Both the position numbers and the translations under genes were made by a program. Under the pieces are notes generated by a model. The model was not told where the DNA came from. It did not search any database and worked only from the letters and a program-made list of their open reading frames with translations. Of a stretch of DNA of 64,000 nucleotides, positions 17,424 through 32,611 are shown piece after piece; the stretch's first letter is position 1, and each line of letters begins with the position of its first letter. Origin of the DNA: a candidate division TA06 bacterium B3_TA06 (GTDB lineage Bacteria; Hydrothermota; Tepidihabitantia; B3-TA06); contig NJBO01000002.1 of NCBI GenBank assembly GCA_005223075.1, positions 113,221 to 177,220 of the forward strand, read 5' to 3'.

Positions 17424-17463
17424 CATCCGCCTCACTTACCAGGCAAGGAGGACGTGAAGGGGA

Positions 17464-18069: not shown

Positions 18070-18108
18070 TACTTCTCCCTCTCATGGTATCTATCCGAAA
18101 GGATTTCC

Positions 18109-18429
18109 CTAGTCTCTTCGGCGGATACGGCCACGCCGGCTTGCGTTAATGGTAGCTCCGCCGCCTCCACCCCATACGAAGATAACGCCAAGTAAGAACC
18201 CGAAGTCGTACCAGCCGCCGTTGTTGAAGCACTCATACATATTGACGTTCTTGGAGAACAGGGAGATGATGAAGGTTATGACTGAGATTATCCCATGCCA
18301 CAGCCCGGCCCAGAAACCGGCAGGATTCGCCGTATTCCAACGAGTAGGATCTCCTGCCGCACACCCCAGAAAAACCAACGCAAACAAAACCAAGAAGACA
18401 GGTAGATAGTTCCAACTAAATCTCTTCAT
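18109..18429 (-). CDS. Small membrane lipoprotein, unknown function
   Basis: Lipobox LVFLGCAAG, two further hydrophobic helices, Gly-rich and Arg-rich tail. TTGACT-16-TATAGT and AGGAGG lie upstream. Confidence 0.5.
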   Translation of the reverse strand: MKRFSWNYLPVFLVLFALVFLGCAAGDPTRWNTANPAGFWAGLWHGIISVITFIISLFSKNVNMYECFNNGGWYDFGFLLGVIFVWGGGGGATINASRRGRIRRRD

Positions 18430-18821
18430 TAGCTCCTCCTGCCTGAACTATACGCAAACGAAACGATTAGTCAAGGGTATCACCCCTCCCCGCCTCACCC
18501 CCTACCTTCCAACTCCCCTGCACCTCCTTCCCCACACCCTCGTCCCTTCCATTGATTCTCACCTCACTCCTCTCGATTCTGACTATCTCCTCTCCCCTGT
18601 TTTTAGAGAGCAATTATCATGCCAAGTAGACCGTCATCCAAACAACGTGTATACGAGGATTCCGGAACCCGGATCCATAAGGGAATCAAGGATTCTTAAG
18701 GATAAAGATAATCCTGTTTCACAACCGGTAAAATCACGTGATGCAACCAACAGCTTTTTGACCACCTATGAATTTGCCAATCCATCGTTGACATAACCCT
18801 TTTCCCGGATAGAGTCAAGGT

Positions 18822-19211
18822 GTGCAGGAGATCGTAATCAAACAACTTACCCCGGCCGATTACGAGAAGATAGTCGAGCTTTGGGAACGCGCCGGGCTTG
18901 TGGTTAAAACTAAAGGACGCGATTCTCGAGAAGCTCTAACCAGACAGATGAAGCAGAACCCAAAGTTCTTTCTGGGTGCCGAGGTTGAAAGCCAACTGGT
19001 AGGCGTAATCATAGCCTCAAGTGACGGCAAAAAGGGGCACCTTAACCGAATCGCGGTCCAGGCTCGCTACCGGGGCCAGGGCATCGCCCAGAGACTCACT
19101 CTTGCCGCAGAGGATGCTCTGAGGCAGGAGGGAATAAAGGTCATCACCTTGCTCGTCGAGCGCGATAACATCCCCAGCATCCAGTTGGCCCACAAGTTTG
19201 GCTACGTTTAG
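18822..19211 (+). CDS. GNAT N-acetyltransferase, YpeA-like, ending at an in-frame TAG
   Basis: Acetyl-CoA motif is RIAVQARYRGQGIAQRL. Overall collinear with E. coli YpeA as I remember it. The expected C-terminal strand is encoded after the TAG (19212-19259). Confidence 0.8.
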   Translation: MQEIVIKQLTPADYEKIVELWERAGLVVKTKGRDSREALTRQMKQNPKFFLGAEVESQLVGVIIASSDGKKGHLNRIAVQARYRGQGIAQRLTLAAEDALRQEGIKVITLLVERDNIPSIQLAHKFGYV

Positions 19212-19356
19212 CACCCGGACATAATCTACTTTTCCAAAATGGACTCGGAAGAGGATTAACCAGTTCATGGAAAATCGCAACATCTTGCCGAGATATTACG
19301 TCTAAGATATAGACAATCCGACTCAATCGTGTACTTAGAGAGTTTGATCATTGAGG

Positions 19357-19380
19357 GCCGGTGTAAGCACCGGCCTTTTT
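19357..19380 (+). terminator. Intrinsic terminator after the GNAT gene
   Basis: GGCCGGTG-TAAG-CACCGGCC followed by TTTTT. Confidence 0.75.
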
Positions 19381-19442
19381 ATAAAGATTGCAATATAGAC
19401 GCCTGGGATACACTCTGGACCAAAGGAAATACCTAAGGTGTG

Positions 19443-20453
19443 TTACGGGCAAGAGTGTGTGTTACGGGAACCCAGGATCTCGTTTGACTTTGGACGGTAG
19501 CCGTTTGCGAATGCCGCGGCATCCATCTGTGCTTTGCCCTCCGGCTTCACCTTCAGAACCTCAAGGAATCCTGATCCACACTGAACCACAAGTTTTCCGC
19601 TTTCAAGTATCATGCTTCCCGGGACTCCCGCACCCTCCTCATCGGCTATACGCGAGTGAACGATCTCAAGGCGCTTGCCTCTGAAAAAGGTATACGCCAG
19701 GGGTTCAGGCGAAAGCGCACGAACCAGGTTGTGTATCTTTCCTACCGGACGAGACCAGTCAATAAGTCGCTCTTCCTTGCGGATCTTGGGCGCCTTTGTA
19801 ATACCCTCGCTGGATTGAGGAGATGGTTTAAGCGTACCATCAAGAAGCCCTTCGATTGTCTTCTCCACCAGGTAGCCAGCTGCACGGCTCACGTGCTCGG
19901 CAAGGTCCCCGTAGGTATCATCAGGTTCTATCGGAAGGGGTTCGGAGAGAAGGATGCCGCCTGTGTCAACACGCTCGCTCATCTGGATGATCGTGATGCC
20001 GGTTTCTTCCTCCCCTTCCATGATAGCACGCTGCAGGGGAGCGGCACCTCGATAGGCGGGGAGTAGGGATGGATGGACGTTAATCGCCCAGCGCGGGATA
20101 GCAAGAAGTTTCCCTGAGAGTATCTGACCGTAGGCGAAGAGTACGAAGGCGTCAGGTTTATGTGATGCGCACCATTTTATAGATTCGGGGGAGTTAACAT
20201 CAAGGGGCTGGTATACCTCAACTCCTATCTCTAAAGCGGCCTGTTTGATCGCCGAGGGTTTAGGTCTCCTGCCGCGTCCAGCCCGCCGATCAGGGGCGGT
20301 TACCACCCCTGCCACCTGGCCTAACGAGACACACCGCCGCAAAAGGGGTATACCTATCGCGGCGGTGCCGAAGTAAAGAATCCTCAGGTTACTTCTTCTG
20401 TGAGACAACGGATTTGTCGATCTCCAATTCCGTCTTATCGGCGGTCTTGACAA
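19443..20453 (-). CDS. fmt: Methionyl-tRNA formyltransferase
   Basis: LRILYFGTAAIGIPLL..., INVHPSLLPAYRGAAPLQRAI and a C-terminal Fmt domain. The first ~22 codons of the track ORF overlap yajC. The conserved core starts at LRILYFG, where no canonical start codon exists, so the start is uncertain. Confidence 0.88.
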   Translation of the reverse strand: MSRPPIRRNWRSTNPLSHRRSNLRILYFGTAAIGIPLLRRCVSLGQVAGVVTAPDRRAGRGRRPKPSAIKQAALEIGVEVYQPLDVNSPESIKWCASHKPDAFVLFAYGQILSGKLLAIPRWAINVHPSLLPAYRGAAPLQRAIMEGEEETGITIIQMSERVDTGGILLSEPLPIEPDDTYGDLAEHVSRAAGYLVEKTIEGLLDGTLKPSPQSSEGITKAPKIRKEERLIDWSRPVGKIHNLVRALSPEPLAYTFFRGKRLEIVHSRIADEEGAGVPGSMILESGKLVVQCGSGFLEVLKVKPEGKAQMDAAAFANGYRPKSNEILGSRNTHSCP

Positions 20454-20832
20454 TGAAGCTTTCCTCCTTCACCCTGGTGATGGTTCCGATTACGCCGCCG
20501 TTAGTGACGATACGATCCCCCCGGTTCAACGACTTAAGCATCTCCTGGTGTTTCTTCTGCCGTCTGCGCTGTGGCAGAATCATAACGAGGTAGAATACAA
20601 CGAGTATACCCAGGAGTATAACCCACGTAATCCATGCCGGGCGTTTCTGCTTGGGTGGGGGTTGTTGTTGCTCCACTGCAGGCTGCTCTTCTGCCTCTTC
20701 TGCCTGAACCTCGGCTTCGCCGGTCTGGGCTGGCTGCACCACCTCGGTGGCTTGCTTTTCTGGCTGTCCAGGCTCCGCCGTGGGTGGGGCCTGACCGAGA
20801 AGCAAGAACAATAACGCAACTTTGCAAATCAT
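20389..20832 (-). CDS. yajC: Preprotein translocase subunit YajC with N-terminal signal-like segment and acidic/Pro-rich extension
   Basis: Core is VVFYLMILPQRRRQKKHQEMLKSLNRGDRIVTNGGVIGTITRV. GGAGG-N4-ATG at 20832. Confidence 0.85.
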   Translation of the reverse strand: MICKVALLFLLLGQAPPTAEPGQPEKQATEVVQPAQTGEAEVQAEEAEEQPAVEQQQPPPKQKRPAWITWVILLGILVVFYLVMILPQRRRQKKHQEMLKSLNRGDRIVTNGGVIGTITRVKEESFIVKTADKTELEIDKSVVSQKK

Positions 20833-21380
20833 CTGTCCTCCAATTTCGGTTTGATTACTAATTCTACACAAACACGCCCCCCTGTCAAATGCAGAATCTC
20901 GGCATCGAGCGTGTTCTGACCAACGACCCAGGCATAGGCGTGGCTCGGCATGTTGATGCGGGTTATGAGATAGCGAAGAAGGTGGCTAAGAAGCACTGGG
21001 TAAAGATTCCGATGAAATAGTGATTTCCCCTTCCCTGGTGGAAGGTGAGTAAGGGGAAGGGGATTCACCTCCTCCGACCTCTGCTCCGCAGAGGCCACCT
21101 CCTCCATCAAGGAGGAGGAGACTGGAATGTAAGGGTGGCGTTTGCGGAGTACCGAAGGGCGACGGTAACGGAGCTATCTCATATATCTGACGCACAGCAA
21201 TTAGAGAGGGTTTTTAATCCCCCTCATTTCGGATAGGTGGGTGATCAACGGATTGATGTATATCCCCGGATACAGCCACATATGAGATTACTCACTGCGT
21301 TCGTCCTTCGGTGCTACGTCCTGCTCTCTACGGTCGCAGTCCTCGCAACGACAGCTTGTTCCTCTGTGGTTTAGTGACTG

Positions 21381-21408
21381 TTGACACCGACAGCTAGCCA
21401 TTTATAAT
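21381..21408 (+). promoter_or_regulatory. Sigma70-type promoter TTGACA-16-TATAAT, 11 nt upstream of tRNA-Ala
   Basis: TTGACA at 21381-21386 and TATAAT at 21403-21408. Confidence 0.6.
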
Positions 21409-21419
21409 TCAGTCTAACC

Positions 21420-21492
21420 GGGGGCGTAGCTCAGCCGGGAGAGCACCTGCTTTGCAAGCAGGAAGTCGGCGGTTCGAGTCCGCTCGCCTCCA
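21420..21492 (+). tRNA. tRNA-Ala (anticodon UGC), no encoded CCA
   Basis: GGGGGCG acceptor stem pairing with CGCCTCC, including the G3:U70 pair. D-arm TAGCTCAGCCGGGAGAGC, anticodon loop CTTTGCAAG and T-arm GGTTCGAGTCC. Confidence 0.95.
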
Positions 21493-21498
21493 TTTTTT

Positions 21499-21706
21499 AC
21501 CCCACGCAGATACGTCGTATCTGCGTGGGGACCCCGATTATGCACCCCGCACGATCGCTACGCGCTCGTGCGGGGACCCCGATTAAAATGCTCCTTTTTG
21601 CCTCTGGCAAAAAGATCGGAAGTAATAAATCGAAAAGTCAACCCTTTAGGTTGGCTTTCATTATCTCCTCTGCGATCTTTTTACCCTCTAGGGTAAAAAG
21701 GAGCAT
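21499..21706. repeat. Cluster of intergenic palindromic modules: Y (21499-21535), Y (21543-21580), X (21588-21619), Z (21637-21655), X inverted (21670-21706)
   Basis: Y = CACCCC-hairpin-GGGGACCCC. X = ATGCTCCTTTT-hairpin-AAAAGATCGCAG. Z = GCCAACC..GGTTGGC. Compare the copies listed in findings. Confidence 0.85.
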
Positions 21707-21719
21707 GTTAACAAGGTAT

Positions 21720-21745
21720 GGCCGATCTTCGGATCGGCCTTTTTT
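21720..21745 (+). terminator. Intrinsic terminator
   Basis: GGCCGATC-TTCG-GATCGGCC followed by TTTTTT. Confidence 0.8.
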
Positions 21746-21811
21746 ACCCCTTGACAACTATCCAGGTTCACCTATAATTAGTCCAGGCTAACTTTTTTAG
21801 AGGAGTCTAAC

Positions 21812-22246
21812 ATGACAGCCTTGACTGAAGGCCTGCAGGACTATATTGAGGCGATACTCTTGTGTTCTGCCGAGCACAAGTTCGTTCGAACCAAGCATCT
21901 GGCTGAAAAGCTCGGTGTAAAGAGCCCCAGCGTAAATGCTGCGGTAAAGGAACTTGCTCGGCTCGGATTTGTTGAACACGAGTCTTACGGGTACATTGAA
22001 CTCACCGCCGAGGGTCGCAGACAAGCCGAATGCATCTACTCAAGACATAAGATCCTCTACCGCTTCTTTGCCAAGACCTTGAGCTTGCCCAACGACCTGG
22101 CAGAGGACACCGCTTGCGGTATTGAGCATCATCTTGACGAGCTGACACTTAAGAAGATAACCAAGCTTCTGGATTTTCTGGAACAAAAGATGAAGCAATC
22201 CGAGGAGTTCACGAGTGAACTCAGGAAGACGCTTGACAATGAGTGA
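21812..22246 (+). CDS. DtxR/MntR-family metal-dependent transcriptional repressor
   Basis: N-terminal wHTH (TEGLQDYIEAILL...VRTKHLAEKLGVKSPSVNAAVKELARLGFV) and a dimerisation/metal domain (SRHKILYRFF...EHHL). Lies directly upstream of feoAB. TTGACA-16-TATAAT and GAGGAG are upstream. Confidence 0.85.
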   Translation: MTALTEGLQDYIEAILLCSAEHKFVRTKHLAEKLGVKSPSVNAAVKELARLGFVEHESYGYIELTAEGRRQAECIYSRHKILYRFFAKTLSLPNDLAEDTACGIEHHLDELTLKKITKLLDFLEQKMKQSEEFTSELRKTLDNE

Positions 22247-22478
22247 GAAATTACTGACCGATCTTTCCATAAACGAAGAGGCTGAGATCGTGGAGATAAG
22301 GGGCGGACGGGGTATGCAGGCGCGGTTGAGGGCCCTGGGATTATCTGAAGGGCAGCATGTGAAGAAGCTATCCCATGTGGGGCTGGGCGGGCCGGTAGTC
22401 ATCCTCGTGAACCGCGCGCAGGTGGCGATTGGCCGGGGTATGGCTCGCAGGATTATAGTGAGGAGTAACGATGGCTAA
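22239..22478 (+). CDS. feoA: Ferrous iron transport protein A
   Basis: MSEKLLTDLSINEEAEIVEIRGGRGMQARLRALGLSEGQHVKKL... is a FeoA SH3-like domain. ATG 22239 overlaps the regulator stop. Confidence 0.8.
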   Translation: MSEKLLTDLSINEEAEIVEIRGGRGMQARLRALGLSEGQHVKKLSHVGLGGPVVILVNRAQVAIGRGMARRIIVRSNDG

Positions 22479-24360
22479 GGCGAACAAGGATTCCTCAAAA
22501 CCTACCAGGAAGCGAAAGCACGTAGCCTCAGACATTCTTCTTGTGGGACAGCCCAACGTTGGCAAGAGCGTTTTGTTCTCGCGCATGACCGGCATCCGCA
22601 CCATCGCCTCCAACTATCCAGGCACCACGGTAGGCTACACCTCAGGCAGGATGCGGTTTGCCAACGATATTTATGACGTAGTGGATGCTCCGGGCACCTA
22701 CTCGCTTGAGCCTTTAGACGACGCGGCAAAGGTGGCCGTTGATCTCATTGACGAAGCTAGGCGGATCATCAACGTAGTAGACGCGACCCACCTGGAGCGG
22801 CATCTCACCCTCACCCTTGAGCTTATCGCCCAGGGAAAACCGATGGTTGTTGCTCTAAACATGAGCGACGAGGCGCGGCACAAGGGAATCGAGATAGATG
22901 TCAGCAGACTGGCAAAGAGGCTGGGTGTACCGGTTATCCCGACGGTGGCCCGTACCGGCGAGGGAGTGAAAAGATTGATCCTGGCTACACTTTCACTAGA
23001 TCTGAAGAAAATAGGGAGGGAGGAGGGCGGCCATCCAGGGCACCATCCTCACATTGCCCATCATCCTGTCGGAAACCACACAAGGGGGCATAAGCATATA
23101 CCGGAGAAGAAGGCGTGGACAAAAGTAGGAGAGATTGTGGATGAGGTGCAAATTCTGCATCATCATCATCACACCTTCGGCCAGTGGTTTGAGGAGGCAA
23201 GCGTACATCCGGTCTGGGGCGGATTGGTTGCAATACTGGTTTTAGCCGTCTCCTTCATCCTCATCCGGATTATCGGCGAGTTCCTGATCGGAGGGGGGAT
23301 TGGGATCGTAGGAAATCCATGGGTCGAGCTCCCCTTCGGCACCGAGAAACTGTTCGAGGTTGCGTGGAAGCCTGTGATGATGAAGCTTTCCGGGTTATTG
23401 GGTGAGGGAAGCTTTCTGCACAATCTATTTATCGGCCAGCTCATCGGCGGCCAGATAGACTTCATGCAGTCCTTCGGGATATTGACTTCCGGTCTGTTTA
23501 TTCCTCTTGGAGCGGTGCTCCCCTACATCGTAAGCTTCTACTTCGTACTGGGGATATTGGAGGATACAGGTTATCTGCCCAGGCTGGCGGTGTTTTTGGA
23601 TAACATCATGCACCGGCTTGGACTGCACGGGTATGCAATAATACCAACGCTTCTGGGTCTGGGCTGCAACGTGCCCGGGGTGATGGCGACAAGGATTCTG
23701 GAGACAAAGCGGCAGCGCTTCATCACAGCTACGTTGATATCCATAGCCGTGCCGTGTGCGGCGCTTCAGGCGATGATTATCGGCCTTGTGGGCGAGCGCG
23801 GGTTATGGCCGGTGGCCCTGATCTACGGCATCCTTTTTGTGGTGTGGATTCTGATCGGGGTGATCCTGCGGTTCACCTCAAAAGGGTTCCGGCCAGAGCT
23901 TCTCATTGAGATCCCCCCTTACCGGGCACCTTCCTGGCGTGCTCTGGGCTCCAAGCTGTGGATGCGCATCACCGGTTTTTTAAAGGAAGCCTTGCCGGTT
24001 GTTTTGGGAGCAGTGGTTGTTGTTAACCTTCTCTATCAGTTCAACGTGTTCCGCTACATAGCCAGAGCCGCAGCACCTGTGGTGAGTTTCCTCTGGGGCC
24101 TGCCCAAGGAGGCCATCGCGCCCTTGCTGGTAGGGATATTAAGGAAAGACGTGGCTATCGGCATGTTCGCACCATTGAATCTGACAATCAAGCAGTTGGT
24201 GATCGGAAGCGTGGTTTTATCCATGTTCTTCCCCTGCATCGCGACCTTCGTTATCATGTTCCGTGAGCTGGGCCTAAAGGACGCGTTGAAATCTATAGGC
24301 ATCATGTTTATTGCCGTGATCATTGTAGGTACGGCCATAAACTTCCTCTGGCCGGGATGA
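22471..24360 (+). CDS. feoB: Ferrous iron transporter FeoB with a His-rich linker
   Basis: G1 motif is GQPNVGKS and G3 is DAPG. Has a polytopic membrane domain. A His-rich segment at ~23020-23175 includes HHHHH. Confidence 0.95.
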   Translation: MAKANKDSSKPTRKRKHVASDILLVGQPNVGKSVLFSRMTGIRTIASNYPGTTVGYTSGRMRFANDIYDVVDAPGTYSLEPLDDAAKVAVDLIDEARRIINVVDATHLERHLTLTLELIAQGKPMVVALNMSDEARHKGIEIDVSRLAKRLGVPVIPTVARTGEGVKRLILATLSLDLKKIGREEGGHPGHHPHIAHHPVGNHTRGHKHIPEKKAWTKVGEIVDEVQILHHHHHTFGQWFEEASVHPVWGGLVAILVLAVSFILIRIIGEFLIGGGIGIVGNPWVELPFGTEKLFEVAWKPVMMKLSGLLGEGSFLHNLFIGQLIGGQIDFMQSFGILTSGLFIPLGAVLPYIVSFYFVLGILEDTGYLPRLAVFLDNIMHRLGLHGYAIIPTLLGLGCNVPGVMATRILETKRQRFITATLISIAVPCAALQAMIIGLVGERGLWPVALIYGILFVVWILIGVILRFTSKGFRPELLIEIPPYRAPSWRALGSKLWMRITGFLKEALPVVLGAVVVVNLLYQFNVFRYIARAAAPVVSFLWGLPKEAIAPLLVGILRKDVAIGMFAPLNLTIKQLVIGSVVLSMFFPCIATFVIMFRELGLKDALKSIGIMFIAVIIVGTAINFLWPG

Positions 24361-24416
24361 CGCAGCAAAAACCTAGGTTAGTATGTGTCAGTTGCCCAAC
24401 TACCCACAAAGATAGC

Positions 24417-24445
24417 TTGACACGTGCGGCTGACGGCTCTATAAT
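24417..24445 (+). promoter_or_regulatory. Consensus promoter TTGACA-17-TATAAT, 5 nt from ATG 24451 (leaderless)
   Basis: TTGACACGT at 24417 and TATAAT at 24440-24445. No Shine-Dalgarno sequence. Confidence 0.6.
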
Positions 24446-24450
24446 GTTCC

Positions 24451-25839
24451 ATGACTGAATTGGTGATGGATGACCCTTTTGGCTTCCACAAAAGCCTTGA
24501 GGAGGGTGTGTTCAAGCTGGAGGAGGTGGGAAAGTTGTATGGGGAAGATGAAACTAGTTATTTAGATGGTAAGGAATTCCAATTTGAACTTGTGGTTCGA
24601 CTGAAAGGAAACATTGGGGGGCGAATAGTTTTATCTCCCGTTGATCCATCCTCCAATATAGATGACATAGAGAACGAGATTAACCAAATCAGAAGCACAA
24701 AGCAGGATGGTATATCTGCGTTTACATGGAAATTGGTTGGAGAATTAAAAGGCGAACCGATAGTAGTGAAAACCATATATATATCCTCTGAGGAGAAGAG
24801 TTATCTGCCGTCTCCTAATTATAAGTTGATTTGTGGGTTCTTTGAGTTTGAGTGGGGAGAGGATAAAGGGAAATATGAATCTTGTTTGACTTGGGTTCCC
24901 AATGTGGAATTCGGAGGGTGTGCAGGCACTACCTATCAAGAAGGTAACATCTCTAAGAGTCGTTTGGATCACTGTCAACTATCTTATCCATCCTTGCTTG
25001 GAGGATTGGAAGTCGAGATGCGTCAGCTTCGTAACTATAAGAAGATTTTAAATCACTTGATGTTGAATGGCGGATCGGCGGTTACCTCTATTTGCAACTT
25101 TGAATCCTCATCACCAGCTTCGATAAAGGATTTCTTAGAAATTATAAAGAGATTTTTTCGCCTAGTTTCTTTTGCTTCCGGGAAGTCTATTCTTCCTTTG
25201 GCCTATCATTTTAAGGGTGAGACTGAGATTCTTATCTTAAAACCTCTCAACAGAGTCAGCTACACCAAAACACTAACATGGTGCGATTACGATGATACCC
25301 CCCATTTTTTAGCAGAAGCGCTACAGGAACTTCTGCCTCATTACTTTTCGCTTGATGTGAAGCTACGAGATTTACTTGAGCTTGCATTTTACTTCTACAT
25401 AAACCTGAAGACGATAAGTCACTTCAGTACGGATATTATTCTTCTGGCAACGATCTATGAAAGTTACACATGTTCGGATTTTTTTCTACCTAGTAGCTTA
25501 AGAGAGGGTAAGAATTTACAGGAAAAAATCAAAGAACTATTACTTCGTGAGGATATGTCTTGCGAAAATGATCTTCTGAAGGTTTTCATTGTTTTGAGAA
25601 ATGCAATCATACATAGCCCTCATAAGCTAGTTAATCTTATAAATTCAGATGCTAAGCGTTCAATTCGATACATGCTTCGACAAGCTGAAATACTGACCTT
25701 GAAATGTCTGAATTACACTGGTCAATTCCGTGATACATGGCTAGTGGTTAAAGACCCATCTAAAACGTATCCTGTCTTTAGATTTGGCACAATCCTGAAG
25801 CGGCTGAAGAAAGAGAAAGAAGCTGCGGAATCAAATTAG
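24451..25839 (+). CDS. 462-aa protein with C-terminal RNxxxH (HEPN-type, ApeA/Abi-like) motif; candidate anti-phage RNase
   Basis: Long AT-rich ORF. VFIVLRNAIIHSPHKL lies near residue ~390 inside a predicted helical C-terminal domain. The N-terminal ~250 aa is beta-rich with no motif I recognise. Confidence 0.5.
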   Translation: MTELVMDDPFGFHKSLEEGVFKLEEVGKLYGEDETSYLDGKEFQFELVVRLKGNIGGRIVLSPVDPSSNIDDIENEINQIRSTKQDGISAFTWKLVGELKGEPIVVKTIYISSEEKSYLPSPNYKLICGFFEFEWGEDKGKYESCLTWVPNVEFGGCAGTTYQEGNISKSRLDHCQLSYPSLLGGLEVEMRQLRNYKKILNHLMLNGGSAVTSICNFESSSPASIKDFLEIIKRFFRLVSFASGKSILPLAYHFKGETEILILKPLNRVSYTKTLTWCDYDDTPHFLAEALQELLPHYFSLDVKLRDLLELAFYFYINLKTISHFSTDIILLATIYESYTCSDFFLPSSLREGKNLQEKIKELLLREDMSCENDLLKVFIVLRNAIIHSPHKLVNLINSDAKRSIRYMLRQAEILTLKCLNYTGQFRDTWLVVKDPSKTYPVFRFGTILKRLKKEKEAAESN

Positions 25840-25921
25840 GATATACCTCAGCACACCCTCGCCTGCACCACCGCTTGGTGGTGGGTGTCAGGTCGACCCG
25901 AAAACTTAAAATGAGGTCAAC

Positions 25922-26041
25922 TTGAAAAACAAAGGTCTCGTAACCTTCCTGATCACGCTTGCCGCGTTCGGAGCAACCTACATGCTGCTTGTATTCACAT
26001 CACGGTGGAGCAACGCGGCCTACAGCGTCGCAAGAATTTAA
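25922..26041 (+). CDS. Possible 39-aa single-TM peptide
   Basis: GAGG-N5-TTG, then MKNKGLVTFLITLAAFGATYMLLVFTSRWSNAAYSVARI*. Below the ORF-track size cut-off. Weak evidence only. Confidence 0.25.
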   Translation: MKNKGLVTFLITLAAFGATYMLLVFTSRWSNAAYSVARI

Positions 26042-26064
26042 GAACCGGTGTAAGGTGTGTCTTA

Positions 26065-26093
26065 TTGACACGTTAACTTATCGCAAGTATAAT
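26065..26093 (+). promoter_or_regulatory. Consensus promoter TTGACA-17-TATAAT, 5 nt from ATG 26099 (leaderless)
   Basis: TTGACACGT at 26065 and TATAAT at 26088-26093. Confidence 0.6.
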
Positions 26094-26098
26094 TACCC

Positions 26099-27055
26099 AT
26101 GCTCAAGCGCGTCATGACCTTCCTGAGACAAAGAGTTACAATACTTGTTGACTTTCGTATCAGGTTGAAACCAATTCGTCTCATTGCTCCCAAGTGGATA
26201 TTGTTGGTCATCTGTCTTATTATGGTGTCCTTCATTGGCACTGGTGGACGCTCGATTTTCTGCTGTGTGGGAAATCAAATCGTTTCCTGTAAGTTAATCC
26301 GACTGGAACAAAAGAATCAAGAGCTGCTGGGAAAGTATACGGAACTTGAAGAGGATGCGGATTCCCTTGGAGAGTTGCTGGCGCTTATGGAAAGCCACGA
26401 TATTCAACTCCGCATGTATAAGAATATGGAGATATGGCCTGAAGATATCCGCCAGCTTGGTGTCGGTGGTCCTGCAGTAGAAACTCCGGAGATGATCGAA
26501 CTGCGAGAGATGGGTAGTTCACATTACCATGGAGTTGCAGAGATCAAGAAATCCATAGATGCGCTTCTTCGCAAGGCGCTCTACCAGCAGGAAAGCTTTG
26601 TCGAGATCGAAAAAAAGCTCACCAAAGACGAATACATGCTTGACCATACCCCTTCAATTACACCTACTGAAGGGCATCTGACCAGCGGTTTCGGTTACAG
26701 AATAGATCCCTTTCTCCACTGCATCAAGATGCACACCGGAGTTGACATATCCAACAAGCCGGGGACTCCAATCCTGGCCAGTGCCGACGGTGTAGTCTCC
26801 TTCACCGGCTACCTGTCAGGGTACGGTCTTACCGTAAAGATAGATCACGGGAATGAGATTGAGACCCTGTACGGACATCTTTCCGAATTCTACGTCAAGG
26901 AAGGGCAAAGCGTGCTGCGTGGAGAAGCAATAGGTGCTATGGGTAATACCGGACGCTCCACCGGCCCGCATCTGCACTACGAAGTAAGGGTTGCCGGTAG
27001 GCCAATCAACCCCAAAGGTTACTTCCTCGACGAAGTTCGTAGGGGCCAACCTTAA
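26099..27055 (+). CDS. M23 (LytM-type) metallopeptidase with N-terminal TM anchor and coiled coil
   Basis: HTGVDISNKPGTPILASADGVV...GHLSEF...GNTGRSTGPHLHYEV gives the HxxxD and HxH zinc motifs. Confidence 0.9.
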   Translation: MLKRVMTFLRQRVTILVDFRIRLKPIRLIAPKWILLVICLIMVSFIGTGGRSIFCCVGNQIVSCKLIRLEQKNQELLGKYTELEEDADSLGELLALMESHDIQLRMYKNMEIWPEDIRQLGVGGPAVETPEMIELREMGSSHYHGVAEIKKSIDALLRKALYQQESFVEIEKKLTKDEYMLDHTPSITPTEGHLTSGFGYRIDPFLHCIKMHTGVDISNKPGTPILASADGVVSFTGYLSGYGLTVKIDHGNEIETLYGHLSEFYVKEGQSVLRGEAIGAMGNTGRSTGPHLHYEVRVAGRPINPKGYFLDEVRRGQP

Positions 27056-27077
27056 GGTTGGCCCGTTCATAATATTC

Positions 27078-27188
27078 TTCGTTATCATGTTCCGGGAGCT
27101 GGGCGGCAAGGACGCATTGAAATCCATCGGCATCATGCTGGCCGCGGTGATAGTAGTGGGCGCGGCCATAAACCTCCTCTGGCCGTAA
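27078..27188 (+). pseudogene. Displaced feoB 3' fragment (last ~36 codons only)
   Basis: FVIMFRELGGKDALKSIGIMLAAVIVVGAAINLLWP* compares with the feoB end FVIMFRELGLKDALKSIGIMFIAVIIVGTAINFLWPG*. About 80% nt identity by hand alignment. No upstream feoB body. Confidence 0.75.
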
Positions 27189-27264
27189 GTATATTGGAGA
27201 TCCCCCGCCCTTTTCAACATACCCCTCACCACCTGGTAACGATCTCCTGGCGCACAGACTATAA

Positions 27265-27292
27265 TTGACAAGAATCAATTTTGGACTAAAAT
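27265..27292 (+). promoter_or_regulatory. Promoter TTGACA-16-TAAAAT firing into a 114-nt hairpin
   Basis: TTGACA at 27265-27270 and TAAAAT at 27287-27292. Confidence 0.45.
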
Positions 27293-27300
27293 TAATATAT

Positions 27301-27414
27301 CTTGGCATGGCGGCTTCTGAAAGAGAAGTTGCGAAAAACAATGGCTTCGTTGAACCAGCCGCAGAGGAACTGTTTTTGCCGTTGTTTTACTGTTGGTTCC
27401 TTCGCCATGCCAAG
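27301..27414 (+). other. Long imperfect hairpin (12-bp perfect closing stem); candidate sRNA or 37-aa ORF
   Basis: CTTGGCATGGCG (27301-27312) pairs with CGCCATGCCAAG (27403-27414). Further partial pairing inside. Confidence 0.35.
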
Positions 27415-27550
27415 ATGTAGCCCCTACCTGCTGCAACGACACACGGGGTCCCCGCACAACGGCGAAGCCGGTGTGTGGGGTAAAGCGGCACGGTCGTTGC
27501 ACTCCATAAACATTGCTTGACACACAGAAAGGCGCGACTAGGATTAAGGG

Positions 27551-28930
27551 ATGACTGAAAGGCAGGTAAACGAGTTAAAAGAGCTATTCGGAGAGAGGTT
27601 TTCAACGCTTCCAGAAACCCTTGATCGCTACTCACGCGACGAAACCAGCAACCTTGAGGCTAAGCCGGAGGCGGTTCTTTTTGCCGAGGAGACAGATGAT
27701 GCTGCACGACTCCTCAAATACTGCACTGATAACAAGATTCCGGTGACACCGCGGGGCATGGGAACCGGGGTATCGGGTGGGGCATTGCCGATCGAAGGCG
27801 GGGTGCTTCTAACCCTGGAACGGATGAATAAGATACTGGAGATAGATGTTCCCAACCGCATGGTTGTTGTCCAGCCCGGGGTAATAACCGGAGAGCTGCA
27901 CAAGGCGGTGGAGGCAGAAGGGCTTTTCTACCCTCCCGATCCGGCGTCGCTTGAAAGCTGTTCTGTAGGCGGCAACGTGATAGAGGGAGCGGGCGGGCCC
28001 AGGGCAGTGAAATACGGAACGACCAGGGACTACGTTACCGGTCTTGAGGTTGTTCTACCCACAGGGGATGTGTTACGACTCGGCGGAAAGCTTCGCAAGA
28101 ACGTTACCGGGTACAACCTGATTGGTCTCATGATTGCCTCCGAGGGTACCCTGGGGGTGGTAACCGAGATCACGCTGAGACTCCTGCCACTTCCCAAAGT
28201 AAGAACCGACCTCCTCGTCCCGTTCAAGAGTTTTGAACAGGTTACACGCACCATCAACGAGATCCACAGAACCGGCATTATCCCGGCAGTGATCGAGTTC
28301 ATGGAGCGGCGCGCCTTGGAGATAGTGGAGGCGTATCTTGACTCCAAGCTGCCCGTGCCTGGCGCAGGTGCCTATCTAATGATCGGACTTGACGGCCAGG
28401 ATGCCGAGTCGGTGGAGCGCGACTACGAAAAGGTAGGCGAGATTTGCCTTGAAAACGGTGCGGTGGACGTGTTCGTGGCCGAAGGTTCGGATATGAAGCA
28501 GAGATTATGGAAGACCAGACGGTCTCTGCATGACGCGCTGCACGATCTCTCACCCCAGATGGAGCGTGAGGACGTGGTGGTGCCGGTGGCCAGGATTGAG
28601 GATTTATTGAAAGGGGTGGACGGGATCAGGAACGGGACAAAAGTAGAGGTGGTGGCGTTCGGACACGCGGGTGACGGCAACGTGCATGTTAATCTCCTGC
28701 GCGGCAAGCTGGATGAGGAGAGGTGGAACACCGAACGAGAGCAAGTGTTAGCAGAGCTCTTTGATTTGGTCGTTTCACTCGGCGGCACCCTCTCCGGGGA
28801 GCATGGGATAGGGGTGGTGAAGAAGGAGTTCATGCCACTGGTTACCAGCGATGCGGAACGCAAGCTTTACAAACGGCTGAAACAAGCGTTTGATCCTGCG
28901 GGAATTCTAAATCCGGGAAAAATAATATAA
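27551..28930 (+). CDS. FAD-linked oxidase (GlcD / D-lactate dehydrogenase family)
   Basis: FAD_binding_4 pattern PRGMGTGVSGGALP. C-terminal FAD-oxidase_C with GTLSGEHGIG...LNPGK. Confidence 0.88.
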   Translation: MTERQVNELKELFGERFSTLPETLDRYSRDETSNLEAKPEAVLFAEETDDAARLLKYCTDNKIPVTPRGMGTGVSGGALPIEGGVLLTLERMNKILEIDVPNRMVVVQPGVITGELHKAVEAEGLFYPPDPASLESCSVGGNVIEGAGGPRAVKYGTTRDYVTGLEVVLPTGDVLRLGGKLRKNVTGYNLIGLMIASEGTLGVVTEITLRLLPLPKVRTDLLVPFKSFEQVTRTINEIHRTGIIPAVIEFMERRALEIVEAYLDSKLPVPGAGAYLMIGLDGQDAESVERDYEKVGEICLENGAVDVFVAEGSDMKQRLWKTRRSLHDALHDLSPQMEREDVVVPVARIEDLLKGVDGIRNGTKVEVVAFGHAGDGNVHVNLLRGKLDEERWNTEREQVLAELFDLVVSLGGTLSGEHGIGVVKKEFMPLVTSDAERKLYKRLKQAFDPAGILNPGKII

Positions 28931-28933
28931 GAA

Positions 28934-29308
28934 GCCAACCTTTGGTTGGCTTACATGTTGGTTCTTGCAATCCTTTGCGCGTAGCGCAAAGGGAGCATTT
29001 AAACACCCCACACATCTGCTACGCATCTGTGCGGGGACCCCGAATATGCTCCTTTTCTCCTGCGGAGAAAAGATCGCAGGGATAAAATTTAAAGTGCACC
29101 GACCACATTGTTGCATTCTCTTTTTGTCGCTTTCTCATAAAGTAAGCATTTCCTGAAAATCTACATTAAGAATCAAAAGATGCACCCTTAAAGTTTTGTG
29201 AAACCTGCCAGCTTCCTGACCCTCCTATTCTGCGATCTTTTTGCGCTCTGCGCAAAAAGGAGCAAATATTTGGGGTCCCCACAAAAACGTGAAACGTTTT
29301 TGTGGGGT
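28934..29308. repeat. Cluster of palindromic modules: Z (28934-28950), X-variant (28966-28998), Y (29004-29041), X (29046-29079), X inverted (29230-29265), Y inverted (29272-29308)
   Basis: Same conserved flanks as the other copies, with different stem sequences. Confidence 0.85.
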
Positions 29309-29311
29309 ATT

Positions 29312-29338
29312 AAAATCCCGGCTTAAGGCCGGGATTTT
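29312..29338. terminator. Bidirectional terminator-like hairpin between convergent genes
   Basis: AAAATCCCGGC-TTAA-GGCCGGGATTTT. Confidence 0.6.
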
Positions 29339-29444
29339 AAGTGGGTATCTCACTGCCTTTCGGCAAACCCACCCATACTGAACGTATTGATTATAGGAGC
29401 AAGGCAGACGTCGTCAAGTGAAAATCTGTTGTCGGGAAGTCAGG

Positions 29445-29612
29445 TCACTCAGAAAGCAGGTCTTTATCGATCTCCTTCTCCTGCTTGCGTTTGCGCTTGT
29501 AGGAAGGTTTTTCTTCTTTCTTCTCTGACCAGCGTATGTTCTTTGGAGGCCGGGGATGCCTGGGTTTCTGCTTTATAACCTTCTTTTCAACCGTCTTCTT
29601 TTTTCTCGGCAC
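29445..29612 (-). CDS. Possible 55-aa highly basic (Lys/Arg-rich) protein downstream of dapF
   Basis: AGGTGG-N5-GTG, then MPRKKKTVEKKVIKQKPRHPRPPKNIRWSEKKEEKPSYKRKRKQEKEIDKDLLSE*. Below the ORF-track cut-off. Confidence 0.35.
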   Translation of the reverse strand: MPRKKKTVEKKVIKQKPRHPRPPKNIRWSEKKEEKPSYKRKRKQEKEIDKDLLSE

Positions 29613-29629
29613 AACCCACCTGATGAAGT

Positions 29630-30427
29630 TTAAGGCAATTCTATCTCGCCCTTGAACACCACAGCCGTCTCACCGCCCAGCATCACGTTGGTGGGTGTTG
29701 ACGTGCTAGACTCAAAGCTGACGCGAAGCATTCCGCCGGGGAAGTTGAGCCCTATTGGCGGTTGTATCCCTTTAAGTCGGTGCAGAATGGTAGCCACGGC
29801 CACCGCGCCTGTGCCGCATGCTAAGGTCTCTCGCTCCACCCCGCGCTCGTAGGTGCGCACCGAGATTGAGTTATCCGGATGGATCTGGACGAAATCGGCG
29901 TTTGTTCCGGCAGGTATGAATTTCGGATGATTGCGGATCGAACGGCCGACTCCATCTACGTCGAAAGAGGCAAGGTTTTCGACAAGAACTACGACGTGAG
30001 GAACACCGGCGTCAACGAAGTGAAGCGGGAAGTCGAACTCATGCAACGTCAGGTTGAGTTTTATATCCTTGGGATCGGGCAGGGAGACGCTCGGTTTGCC
30101 GTCAACGACCAGTCCCTTGTGAACGCCCGCGTCGGATACGAACCTCATCTTCCGAGGTGCCATACCTTCCTTCCACATGTAGAGCACCAGCGCACGGGCC
30201 CCGTTCCCGCAGAAGGAGGCTCTGGAGCCGTCTGCGTTGAAGTAGACCATGCGGAAGTCGTGCTCAGGATCTCTGAGAACCAGAAGCAGACCGTCAGCAC
30301 CTATGCCCTTGCGGCGATCGCACAGGATTGGTGCCAGTTTGGCAAATTCTTCATCGGACAGTTCAGGATACTTGACGACTACAAAGTCATTTCCTGCACC
30401 GTGCACCTTGGTGAATGGAAGCTTCAT
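29630..30427 (-). CDS. dapF: Diaminopimelate epimerase
   Basis: FTKVHGAGNDFVVV and both catalytic Cys motifs (FCGNGARA, ACGTGAVA). Promoter is TTGACA-17-ATCATT, 5 nt from the ATG. Confidence 0.92.
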   Translation of the reverse strand: MKLPFTKVHGAGNDFVVVKYPELSDEEFAKLAPILCDRRKGIGADGLLLVLRDPEHDFRMVYFNADGSRASFCGNGARALVLYMWKEGMAPRKMRFVSDAGVHKGLVVDGKPSVSLPDPKDIKLNLTLHEFDFPLHFVDAGVPHVVVLVENLASFDVDGVGRSIRNHPKFIPAGTNADFVQIHPDNSISVRTYERGVERETLACGTGAVAVATILHRLKGIQPPIGLNFPGGMLRVSFESSTSTPTNVMLGGETAVVFKGEIELP

Positions 30428-30472
30428 ATATAAATGATACTTGTCTGCCTGGAGGTGTCAATATAATAAAGG

Positions 30473-30562
30473 TGTGGAACAGCCTCTCCAGGCTGTTCAT
30501 AAATAAGCACAGGCCGACAATTGTCACCCCCACCTTTATCCTCCCCCATCAATGGGGAGGAA
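30473..30562 (+). repeat. 90-bp direct repeat, copy 1
   Basis: TGTGGAACAGCCTCTCCAGGCTGTTCATAAATAAGCACAGGCCGACAATTGTCACCCC[C/T]ACCTTTATCCTCCCCCATCAATGGGGAGGAA. Differs from copy 2 at one position. Confidence 0.9.
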
Positions 30563-30922
30563 ACTATAAGGTTGATCTCTAGATCGACCTTCAAATATCC
30601 TGCATGCGATCTTTTTAGCCTTTGGCTAAAAATGAGCAAATCCAGATCGCCACGTCGCCTTCGGCGGCTCGCGATGACATTCATTTTGTGGAGTGCAACA
30701 ACCGCGTTGTTGCGTTTATAATTATGCAATGACACGGTCATTGCACTCCAAAAGATCCCAAGATTAAAAGGAAGGTCAACCTGACGCGAAGCGCGCAGGC
30801 AAAGGCTGCGAACGTCGACCCATACGAATTTCACCGATTTCAATATTCTTCCCTTGATGGGGGACGAACAATAAACCCTCCCAAAAGGTAGGGGCACGCT
30901 GTGCCGTACCCTTACTGATCTT

Positions 30923-31012
30923 TGTGGAACAGCCTCTCCAGGCTGTTCATAAATAAGCACAGGCCGACAATTGTCACCCCTACCTTTATCCTCCCCCATC
31001 AATGGGGAGGAA
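30923..31012 (+). repeat. 90-bp direct repeat, copy 2 (450 bp from copy 1)
   Basis: See copy 1. Confidence 0.9.
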
Positions 31013-31119
31013 TTATGAGGGATGTCGAATCCACAAAGGAATCCCCCTCCCTTGATGGGACAGTGTGCCCCTTGAGTGCCTGGTGCACTCATATGGTAGG
31101 GGGTAGGGGAAGGGTGAAA

Positions 31120-32439
31120 TTATGCCTTGACTATTTTCTCGCGGCCTTGCTTTACGTCGGCCGTCGCGTTGCGGGTATCGATCACAAGCTTCGCGTGGGC
31201 AACCACCTTGGCGTAGTCCAGGCTGTCGTGGTCGGTGGCGATTAATACGACGTCGTATTTGGCGATATTCTCAGCGCTCAAAGGCACGCTCTCCTTGTCG
31301 AACTTGTAACGACGTGTAGGCGGAATCTTGGGGATATAGGGATCGTGGTAATCGACCACCGCACCCTTCTCCTCAAGAAGTTCAATGAGACGCAACGCTG
31401 GCGACTCGCGCATATCGTCAACGTTCTTCTTGTACGCCATGCCCAGAATAAGCACCTCCGAGCCGTTCAACGCCTTCTTGTGGTCGTTGAGCGCCTCCAT
31501 TATCTTGCCTACCACCCAGCGTGGCATGGATGTGTTGATCTCACCGGCAAGCTCGATGAACCGGGTGGGCATCTCAAACTCCTGCGCCTTGTAGGTGAGA
31601 TAGAATGGATCGATTGGGATGCAGTGACCACCCAGACCAGGACCGGGGTAGAACGGCATGAACCCGAACGGTTTTGTGGATGCGGCACGGATAACCTCCC
31701 ACACGTCTATCCCCATGGCGTCGAGGATCACCTTCAGCTCGTTTACGAGCGCGATGTTAACGCTGCGGAACGCATTCTCGAATATCTTGGTGGCCTCGGC
31801 CGCCTCGGCTGAGGAGACCGGCACCGTTTGATCAATTACCGCATCGTAGATGGCCTTGGCCAGCCCAAGGCTCCGCTTGGAGTTGGCACCCACCACCTTG
31901 GGGATGTTCTTGGTGTTGTATTTAGGGTTATTGGGGTCTTCGCGCTCAGGAGAATAGGCGAGGTAGAAATCGGTGTGGGCGACAAGACCGGAGCGCTCCT
32001 CCAATACTGGCCGCATTATCTCCTCGGTGGTGCCGGGGAACGAGGATGATTCAAGTACAACAAGCTGCCCTTTTTTAAGATAGGGGCCGATCTGTTCTGC
32101 AGTACCGGTTACGAACGAGAGGTCGGGCTGAAGGTGATCGTCAAGCGGTGTGGGGACGCAGACAAGCAAAGTATCAGACTCGGGGATGCGACTGAAGTCG
32201 GCAGTTCCCTCAAGAAGACCTTTCTTAACCGCATCCTTGATTCTAGCCGAGGGGATGTGTTTTATGTAGGTCTTCCCTGCGTTAAGCGCCTCGGCTTTGG
32301 CCTCGTCTATGTCATAGCCAATCACGCGGAAACCCTCCTCGGCGAACGTCAACGCCAAAGGAAGCCCCACGTATCCCATCCCCACCACACCAACAACCGC
32401 CTTGCGCTCGGCTATCCGCCCAAGTGTAAGCATGCCCAC
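31120..32439 (-). CDS. Nucleotide-sugar dehydrogenase (UDP-glucose/GDP-mannose dehydrogenase family; WbpA/WecC-like)
   Basis: VGVVGMGYVGLPLALTFAEEG..., catalytic GLGGHCIP and a C-terminal UDPG_MGDP_dh_C. Confidence 0.88.
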   Translation of the reverse strand: MGMLTLGRIAERKAVVGVVGMGYVGLPLALTFAEEGFRVIGYDIDEAKAEALNAGKTYIKHIPSARIKDAVKKGLLEGTADFSRIPESDTLLVCVPTPLDDHLQPDLSFVTGTAEQIGPYLKKGQLVVLESSSFPGTTEEIMRPVLEERSGLVAHTDFYLAYSPEREDPNNPKYNTKNIPKVVGANSKRSLGLAKAIYDAVIDQTVPVSSAEAAEATKIFENAFRSVNIALVNELKVILDAMGIDVWEVIRAASTKPFGFMPFYPGPGLGGHCIPIDPFYLTYKAQEFEMPTRFIELAGEINTSMPRWVVGKIMEALNDHKKALNGSEVLILGMAYKKNVDDMRESPALRLIELLEEKGAVVDYHDPYIPKIPPTRRYKFDKESVPLSAENIAKYDVVLIATDHDSLDYAKVVAHAKLVIDTRNATADVKQGREKIVKA

Positions 32440-32611
32440 TCCTTTTTTGACGCTAGGCGTAAGCTTAGTCGAACCTCGGCTAAAGTCAAGCTAACCGCAG
32501 ATTTCTATAAGGATTTTAATTCAAGTAATCCGTGTAATCTGCGAAATCTGCGGTTTAAATCCTTGACTTCGGGAACTTATTCTCTAGAATTCACGAAACA
32601 AGGAGGCTTGC

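Follow-up and report, generated by a model that had tools for sequence, protein, structure and literature searches.

Two copies of the feoB 3' end around a composite insert in a candidate Stahlbacteria / WOR-3 genome: most likely a recombination scar in a hypervariable gene slot

This study concerns a short interval between two conserved genes, feoB and a glcD-like gene, in candidate division TA06 bacterium B3_TA06 (assembly GCA_005223075.1, contig NJBO01000002.1), in which the 3' end of feoB occurs twice and brackets about 2.7 kb of other genes. The stretch analysed, referred to as the window, is 64,000 nucleotides (nt) long (contig positions 113,221 to 177,220), and coordinates given without a locus name refer to it. 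A scan of reference genomes for FeoB traced the relatives of the window to Candidatus Stahlbacteria / candidate division WOR-3; a metagenome scan contributed 24 further loci, and exact-protein look-ups contributed L014, L039, L040 and L041. An earlier account drawn from the letters of the DNA (the sequence-only reading) had interpreted the arrangement as the footprint of an element that entered the 3' end of feoB and supplied a replacement for it. Its observation is confirmed here, while its interpretation is partly supported: the second feoB tail is most likely a scar of recombination and not the footprint of an integrating element. The features of the locus, all on the forward strand, are the following.

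22471..24360, +: feoB, 629 amino acids (aa), the left core gene of the slot (Pfam FeoB_N, Gate and FeoB_C), ending ...WPG-TGA
24246..24354, +: copy 1 of the repeat, the functional feoB 3' end, class-1 allele type as judged by allele identities and by G+C at third codon positions (GC3)
24417..24445, +: consensus sigma-70-type promoter, TTGACA-N17-TATAAT, 12 of 12 consensus matches, 5 nt before the ATG of the 462-aa gene
24451..25839, +: 462-aa HEPN-motif protein, a distant ApeA-like candidate defence RNase on the basis of an Rx4H motif, sub-threshold profiles and position in the slot
25893..26032, +: 5' stump of tm206 with about 30 nt of upstream sequence, 85.7% identical to L019 10795-10934 over all 140 nt
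26060..27035, +: M23 peptidase segment, with promoter 26065-26093 and open reading frame (ORF) 26099-27055 (Pfam Peptidase_M23, E = 5e-37)
27036..27076, +: tm206 3'-untranslated remnant with a perfect hairpin (27042-27064), supplying the last six M23 codons and the stop
27077..27188, +: copy 2 of the repeat, an orphan feoB 3' end plus TAA, a mixed allele as judged by allele identities and its junction
27189..27550, +: spacer, found directly after the feoB stop in L021 and L001
27551..28930, +: glcD-like FAD-linked oxidase, the right core gene of the slot (Pfam FAD_binding_4 and FAD-oxidase_C)

The direct repeat (24246-24354 and 27077-27185) spans 109 nt without a gap and is identical at 89 of 109 positions, or 82% (BLAST E = 2e-26 in a search within the window). 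The copies differ by exactly 20 mismatches, of which 12 fall at codon position 3, six at position 1 and two at position 2, and by 6 of 36 residues, in agreement with the earlier hand count of about 20 mismatches, many of them third-position. The feoB gene proper (22471-24360) terminates in ...FVIMFRELGLKDALKSIGIMFIAVIIVGTAINFLWPG and its stop codon; copy 2 lies on the same strand, keeps the reading frame, closes with TAA and has no feoB body upstream, so that the repeat is real as first described. At the upstream edge of both copies an 18-nt block, CTTCGTTATCATGTTCCG, is perfectly identical; L015-L018, members of the window's own clade, also have it, as a conserved part of feoB.

The whole arrangement recurs in L014 (sample SRR30965935), where the last 64 nt of copy 1, the 462-aa gene, the 39-aa stump, the M23 gene, an identical copy 2 and the spacer follow one another with the same junctions. 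A third sample, SRR14872667, yielded L041, which contains the junction between the tm206 hairpin and copy 2 as well as the start of copy 2; both samples are separate from that of the window. Independent assemblies reproduce the junctions, L014 both of them and L041 the distal one, and misassembly is ruled out, contrary to the chimerism that had been allowed for at the junctions. Among the loci compared, the second feoB tail occurs only in the window, L014 and L041.

Relatives were grouped by FeoB identity into clade W (the window, L001 and L015-L018; 90-97% aa) and its sister, clade R (L002-L004, L019-L021 and L033; 86-88% aa). L014 and L041 carry the same class-1 tail as clade W and contain too little feoB to be scored. 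FeoB orthologues in L001, L015-L021 and L039 are 84-97% identical at the amino acid level, and the glcD orthologues in L001, L004, L015, L017-L019, L021 and L033 are 88-95% identical. Outside the window and L014, what lies between or next to these two genes is as follows.

L017: feoB, 38 nt, glcD
L001 and L021: feoB, a spacer of 316-370 nt, glcD
L015: M23 alone between feoB and glcD
L039 (FeoB 84%): M23 beginning 78 nt after feoB, with a near-identical promoter; the contig stops before glcD
L041: M23, hairpin and the start of copy 2
L016: a clear ApeA, tm206 stump and M23
L018: a DUF3800 protein (5e-16)
L019: a HEPN_RiboL-PSP protein (6e-12), intact tm206 and hairpin, then glcD
L020: tm206
L004: a TonB-dependent receptor and tm206
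L033: two other genes and tm206

At least 10 different fillings thus separate feoB from glcD, two genes conserved at 84-97% aa identity, and the interval is, by these comparisons, a hypervariable accessory-gene slot between two conserved core genes that often holds candidate phage-defence genes. That the 2.7 kb are an insertion relative to other genomes, as the sequence-only reading supposed, is borne out by L001, L017 and L021, where feoB directly precedes glcD. Eight other versions of the slot bear cargo; six of them continue as far as glcD or another gene downstream, and all six lack a second feoB tail; two (L016 and L020) end too early to tell. The slot cargo proteins that were scanned contain no integrase or transposase domain. 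Recognized defence-associated families are represented by ApeA (L016), RiboL-PSP HEPN (L019) and DUF3800 (L018), each a domain match that marks a candidate for defence. The ApeA of L016 (L016 1875-3336) is itself divided into two overlapping ORFs, of 304 aa (ApeA_NTD1, 1e-39) and 195 aa (HEPN_Apea, 6e-27), which may reflect a frameshift, gene decay or misassembly.

With variable fillings between conserved neighbours, the slot resembles in its behaviour the defence hotspots that lie between core genes in Pseudomonas aeruginosa, also without mobility genes (PMC10250203). The likeness extends to two core genes, strain-variable cargo, the absence of mobility genes and an enrichment in candidate defence genes, namely those for ApeA, the RiboL-PSP HEPN protein, DUF3800 and the HEPN-motif protein of the window. 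Unlike the P. aeruginosa hotspots, the present slot is very small (0-4 kb, one to three genes), belongs to an uncultivated candidate phylum, holds non-defence cargo as well (M23, a TonB-dependent receptor and tm206) and has a defence role that is a candidate one.

Between the two copies lie a 462-aa ORF, a 39-aa transmembrane ORF and a 318-aa M23 peptidase. The sequence-only reading had listed the same three, a HEPN-motif gene among them, and its list stands except that the 39-aa ORF (25922-26041) is not a gene in its own right; it is the truncated start of tm206, a gene for a 206-aa membrane protein that is intact in L004, L019, L020 and L033. A sub-stretch of the stump (25923-26032) is 86.4% identical to L004 14501-14610, and the ORF runs on to 206 aa in L004 and L019. 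In L014 the stump has suffered a 42-nt deletion, which suggests that it is decaying. The other end of tm206 is also present: positions 27039-27077 are 95% identical to the sequence directly after the tm206 stop in L019 (11449-11487) and in L033. As the last six codons of M23 and its stop fall within this tm206 3' sequence, the M23 gene sits inside the remains of tm206.

The M23 protein matches PF01551 with 126 bits (cut-off 28.7), retains its metal-binding motifs (HTGVD at residue 212 and HLH at 291) and has an N-terminal transmembrane helix followed by a coiled coil; it is probably a membrane-anchored peptidoglycan endopeptidase. Its segment is 97% identical to L015 1953-2928 and to L041, and the homology with L015 stops at 27035. 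The gene directly follows feoB in L015, L041 and L039, and its homologues form a graded series of 97, 81, 81, 67, 66, 56% and onward. The idea that M23 is mobile cargo is weakened by L039, where the adjacency to feoB holds at 81% M23 identity; taken with the graded homologues, this adjacency indicates that M23 has long stood beside feoB and is not foreign cargo.

Other boundaries are shared among relatives. The border between first-position cargo and the tm206 stump (25892/25893) is common to the window, L016 and L019, which fits an exchange of cassettes by homologous recombination in shared flanks. L041 combines a left side of the L015 type (feoB-GGG-TAA-CACCTTG-M23 promoter) with a right side of the window type, an indication that modules reassort through shared segments. 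The insert (2716 nt) has a G+C content of 0.441 against 0.53-0.54 in its flanks, and to this extent the low G+C reported earlier is correct, but the drop is uneven: the HEPN segment stands at 0.41, the 462-aa gene itself at 0.396 (GC3 0.395) and the M23 segment at 0.48, so that the effect is strong only in the 462-aa gene. Judged by the separate occurrence of its parts, the 2.7-kb insert is a composite and not one coherent element.

The left edge of copy 2 is a sharp joint, ...CATAATATTC / TTCGTTATC, at which the tm206 hairpin region abuts position -109 of feoB with an overlap of 0-1 nt. After tm206, L019 and L033 read ...GGCCGACCTTAAGGTTGGCCCGTTCATAATATTC / GGGCCGG..., where the window reads ...GGCCAACCTTAAGGTTGGCCCGTTCATAATATTC / TTCGTTATCATG...; the tm206 3' homology to these loci ends at ...CATAATATTC and the feoB homology begins at the next base. 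This joint is found in three assemblies and in two different left-hand contexts. On its right, copy 2 passes through its TAA into the spacer without interruption, as in L021, which is 99-100% identical to the window over approximately 27155-27340; coding DNA near the spacer is about 72-92% identical between the window and L021 per 60-nt block. The switch from tm206 to feoB homology, together with the L021-like right side, identifies the window as a cargo-type left joined to a spacer-type right, beginning at feoB -109.

Exchange of this kind has a suitable background. Across 16 kb (17000-33000), blocks in which the window and L001 are 97-100% identical alternate with blocks of 70-85%. Against L014 the window is about 99-100% identical over 24411-25310 and 26132-27525 and about 80-85% over 25311-26130, a low block that corresponds to the C-terminal half of the 462-aa gene through to the M23 promoter. 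Such mosaics, in both comparisons, suggest that homologous exchange among diverged relatives is frequent.

From the anatomy of the locus, its junctions, its distribution among relatives and its allele affinities we infer, with a probability of roughly 0.6, a core-gene-flanked accessory hotspot in which one feoB 3' end was displaced by homologous recombination on one side and illegitimate recombination on the other. Gene segments equipped with their own promoters would be gained, lost and reassorted in the slot by homologous recombination through shared flanks and internal segments, with no mobility gene involved. From feoB up to 27076 the window has the layout feoB - defence gene - tm206 - hairpin - glcD, which is intact in L019, with the body of tm206 replaced by M23; from 27077 onward it has the layout feoB 3' end - spacer - glcD, as in L021. 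Imported DNA would have recombined homologously on one side, either within feoB or within glcD and its upstream region, while the other side would have been joined illegitimately, the end of the tm206 hairpin to feoB -109. The outcome would be one feoB tail in frame and working (copy 1) and another left orphaned (copy 2).

Homology-facilitated illegitimate recombination is a described mechanism (PMC3240628), and 3'-end displacement has been proposed for the orphaned 3' ends and immunity genes of type VI secretion system (T6SS) arrays in Vibrio cholerae and of Rhs loci (PMC5361080). The arrangement proposed here resembles those cases in having a homology anchor in a conserved upstream gene, an illegitimate join at the other end, a resident 3' end moved downstream as a same-strand orphan, and no integrase. 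It differs in that a housekeeping transporter, rather than a polymorphic toxin, has had its tail displaced, that there is a single orphan and no array, and that the mechanism is proposed from anatomy alone, with either direction possible.

Which of the two copies is the resident end is a question on which the evidence is mixed. Copy 1 is 98% identical to the functional feoB end of L001, 99% to that of L015, 97% to L016, 88% to L018 and 86% to L017. Every clade-W locus has a tail of the copy-1 type, including L017, which has no insert at all (identity 86% with copy 1, 81.5% with copy 2); for L001, with the spacer only, the values are 98% and 81.5%. The unoccupied sites of close relatives do not have the distal version of the end, and a match to the final part of copy 2 together with the spacer comes from L021 alone, a member of the other clade. 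At third codon positions copy 1 (GC3 0.667) has the composition of the feoB body (0.660) and not that of the AT-rich cargo; copy 2 (0.833) lies at the upper extreme. The earlier suggestion that the distal copy is the host-like one is not supported by these comparisons. The accompanying claim, that both copies evolved as coding sequence in different lineages, is supported: copy 1 belongs with the ends of L001, L015 and L016 (97-99%), and the last 60 nt of copy 2 with the clade-R alleles of L004, L020 and L033 (92-97%). The first 48 nt of copy 2 are 92-94% identical to the clade-W alleles of L016-L018, so that copy 2 as a whole is a mixture of alleles from two clades. With one private base only, no indel and no internal stop, it was recently part of a working gene. 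The notion that copy 2 is simply foreign, prompted by a whole-gene average of about 80% to L004, was revised in the light of the local 600-nt background of 86-88% and then of the two-clade mixture. A search of 5.8 billion proteins for a feoB C-terminus ending in the copy-2 peptide returned only fragments at 77% identity or less and is uninformative.

L001 equals the window minus 24355-27185; taken in 100-nt blocks, the flanking 380 nt or so on the left and 220 nt or so on the right are 98-100% identical. Its tail is of the copy-1 type through ...CTCTGGCCG, continues with TAA-GTATATTGG as copy 2 does, and therefore ends CCG-TAA. The cargo types L016 and L019 share the ...CCGGGATGA ending of the window, and for this reason L001 is read as a genome that secondarily lost the insert; the loss looks like recombination within the last 12 identical bases of the two copies.

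Several points weigh against the displacement that we favour. L004, L002 and L033 share 86-88% identity with the window over the 600 nt that precede the repeat, a level matched by copy 2 (85-90%) and not by copy 1 (77-79%), and this pattern also fits copy 2 as the older resident end. No genome was found in which a working feoB carries exactly the copy-2 allele. The perfectly identical 18 nt of CTTCGTTATCATGTTCCG are located where a site-specific core would be expected. Both directions, cargo into a spacer-type genome or spacer into a cargo-type genome, fit the data, and we know of no natural competence or other route of DNA uptake in this uncultivated group. The HEPN assignment is made from a motif and sub-threshold profiles, and the confident structure model of the protein has no significant match in the PDB.

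The integrative reading, in its most specific form, takes the insert as an islet of the e14 / phage 21 type, whose attachment site would carry a replacement feoB 3' end and which would have integrated at the 18-nt core, displacing copy 2, its integrase since lost or acting in trans. In the part of PMC13626634 that treats them (citing Hill et al. 1989), e14 and phage 21 are described as integrating into icd, supplying an alternative icd 3' end and leaving the icdC fragment, and e14 loss as leaving a chimeric icd. By that account the two loci are alike: the insert lies between direct, diverged copies of the 3' end of a gene, the working gene is intact, and a chimeric tail is left, apparently in L001 too, when the copies recombine and the insert is lost. 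The direct repeats, the 18-nt identity at their upstream edge, the restored reading frame, the lower G+C, the precedent of e14 itself and the agreement of copy 2, rather than copy 1, with the upstream feoB body in its relation to L004, L002 and L033 all speak for such an islet. Set against e14 as described there, the present insert has no integrase and no coherent element, its cargo includes genes resident at the locus, and the working ends of the nearest relatives match the proximal copy and not the distal one. The tm206 stumps lie in the same order and orientation as the gene does in relatives, and M23 was beside feoB already. The content varies between carriers (L041 has only M23 between the copies), and the boundaries do not recur, given that L015 has M23 with no copy 2 and L016 has ApeA in place of the HEPN-motif gene of the window. 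The six cargo versions that extend past their cargo lack a distal copy, clade-W ends are of the copy-1 type even where uninserted (L017), copy 1 has the GC3 of feoB, and what lies to the left of copy 2 is the tm206 hairpin and not the arm of an element. The sequence-only reading was right that no integrase is present, as every ORF between the copies (HEPN-motif gene, tm206 stump and M23) is free of a recombinase domain, and right that one 3' end has been displaced by another. A discrete element and an att-like duplication, on the other hand, are not supported, the one in view of the missing recombinase and of a mosaic of modules that occur separately in relatives, the tm206 stumps and M23 included, the other in view of the 0-1 nt overlap at the hairpin and the six cargo versions with no second tail. 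Lacking a recombinase, coherent content, duplication in other cargo variants and viral relatives, an integrative element is not supported, and the e14-type islet is in our estimate an unlikely explanation; the 18-nt identity of the two copies is what leaves a small probability to site-specific or Campbell-type integration. Were site-specific excision to occur at the 18-nt block, it would give a circle reading ...CATAATATTC-TTCGTTATCATGTTCCG-TGAGCTGGGCCTAAAG and restore a copy-2-type feoB. A bolder version, that the block is a true attachment site for integrase-less defence islets mobilized in trans by a host or helper recombinase, would make the slot a dedicated docking site for small promoter-carrying cassettes, a cassette system unlike integrons; we regard it as quite improbable. 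Inspection of the junction by eye for a dif / Xer-like site gave nothing convincing.

A comparably unlikely route to the same structure is a Campbell-type single crossover, in which a circle spanning feoB -109 to the tm206 hairpin would have left a cargo-type genome by illegitimate excision and entered a spacer-type genome by homologous recombination within the 109 nt of homology. The topology fits, as copy 1 is entirely of class 1 and copy 2 entirely not, which a crossover in the leftmost 18 identical nt would be expected to give, and the hairpin-feoB joint would be the closure point of the circle. Minimal homology length limits RecA-type recombination, however, and 18 perfect nt within 82% overall identity make a poor substrate compared with a long feoB anchor; there is no evidence for such circles, and two rare steps would be needed in place of one. 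If copy 2 were what remains of a tandem feoB paralogue, or of a local duplication, after loss of the body, its shared strand, preserved frame and near lack of decay would be accounted for. Yet none of about 40 related loci has two feoB genes, the copies are 18% diverged and each matches functional alleles of a different lineage, copy 2 is contiguous with a spacer that follows a single feoB in L021, and its left edge rests on the tm206 hairpin, all of which leaves this origin with a slim chance. Least probable is an assembly chimera built from the reads of two strains that co-occur: strong mosaicism and many strain variants in the population would favour it, but the junctions were assembled independently in L014 and L041. 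Displacement by one-sided homologous and illegitimate recombination is thus the explanation we retain.

The two large insert genes are preceded by an exact TTGACACGT-N14-TATAAT-N5-ATG, that is, TTGACA-N17-TATAAT-N5-ATG, as had been noticed from the sequence and offered as a layout shared within the insert. The layout is not specific to the insert. The related form TTGACA-N16/17-TAnnnT-N5-8-ATG stands before nine ORFs of at least 100 aa in the window, including glcD, dapF and genes 8-20 kb away; examples of the ORF starts concerned are 15912(-), 16377(-), 18822(+), 27551(+), 30427(-), 38641(+) and 46443(+). Found before nine ORFs across the window, the layout is organism-wide, and as the signature of an element it is ruled out. 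It accompanies M23 even in L040, at 64% identity. Promoters placed this close to start codons suggest that leaderless mRNAs may be widespread in the organism.

The spacer holds the glcD promoter (27517-27544), and positions 27160-27340 are 99-100% identical in the window, L014, L001 and L021. Within 27265-27419, a promoter-like TTGACA-N16-TAAAAT (27265-27292) precedes a 124-nt branched hairpin (27296-27419) that has a 17-bp closing stem and a minimum free energy of -54.4 kcal/mol (z = -6.3 against shuffled sequences) and occurs once in the window. A 5-nt indel in L021 breaks the small ORFs that overlap it. An Rfam scan detected only a tRNA-Ala gene and nothing in the insert or spacer; the hairpin is a candidate small RNA beside feoB. 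Further along, the window and L014 contain a GC-rich palindromic insert of 39 nt (27444-27482; CCCCGCACAACGGCGAAGCCGGTGTGTGGGG) that L001 lacks at that place. Related copies lie at 29005-29078, downstream of glcD, and at 21543-21621, downstream of the tRNA-Ala gene, and the element looks like a repetitive extragenic palindrome (REP)-like intergenic repeat.

The 462-aa protein of the insert carries an Rx4H motif, RNAIIH, at residues 383-388 (nt 25597-25614), and RN(A/K/T)xxH is kept in all eight family members that cover the region. Profile matches fall below threshold: ApeA_NTD1 at E = 0.0068 (16.4 bits; Pfam cut-off 25.5) and HEPN_Apea in five of nine family members (best E = 2e-4). The family is tiny, with six representatives among 1.84 billion proteins. 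The structure model (pLDDT 80.7, pTM 0.81) comprises a beta-rich N-terminal part and a helical region at residues 284-419; a structure search of the PDB found no fold match at E < 0.001, and a profile search of PDB sequences found nothing. An hhalign comparison of the family with the ApeA of L016 was not significant, PADLOC and NCBIfam gave no match, an exact look-up found the protein not to be on record, and viral collections contained no match for the protein or for the repeat core.

ApeA is a single-protein HEPN defence system (Pfam PF18862 and PF18739) that forms an oligomeric ring and cleaves tRNA anticodon loops upon activation by a ligand (bioRxiv 10.64898/2026.01.26.701840). The 462-aa protein resembles it in being encoded by one gene of about 460 aa, in pairing a beta-rich N-terminal part with a helical C-terminal part that contains RNxxxH, in its weak matches to ApeA_NTD1 and HEPN_Apea, and in its position, which is that of the clear ApeA of L016 and of the RiboL-PSP HEPN protein of L019. 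It departs from ApeA in that the profiles stay below Pfam thresholds, the alignment to the L016 protein lacks significance, PADLOC detects nothing and no PDB structure matches. The protein is, on these grounds, a candidate abortive-infection-type HEPN ribonuclease that may act like ApeA, with membership of the ApeA family not established. Its N-terminal beta domain (24451-25300) has only weak matches to Hcp and phage tail-tube proteins (E about 0.03, TM about 0.4), which are not significant. Between the window and L014 the N-terminal half of the gene is about 99.6% identical and the C-terminal HEPN half about 80-85%; this divergence of the nuclease domain indicates either allele exchange or rapid diversification.

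Variation is found elsewhere in the neighbourhood. In FeoB the His-rich linker (22895-23175) that connects the G-domain to the membrane domain is hypervariable, 47-69% identical to L001 and with indels, while the remainder of feoB is 76-100% identical per 100-nt block and mostly above 85%. A second variable spot of about 0.7 kb, at 30424-31117, cannot be aligned with L001 between well-conserved flanks; its translation contains the peptide ...PLMGEDKG(G/R)GDNCRPVLIYEQPGEAVP... twice in frame, as an internal repeat.

The finding reveals no new kind of mobile element: a small accessory and defence hotspot and a 3'-end displacement scar are both of known kinds, encountered here in a little-studied phylum. 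The by-products most open to test are the rare HEPN-motif family and the conserved structured non-coding element near feoB. The locus provides a multi-genome example, from uncultivated Stahlbacteria / WOR-3, of accessory and defence genes turning over between two core genes with no mobility gene, and it illustrates that a duplicated gene tail can mimic the footprint of integration and yet be a scar of recombination.

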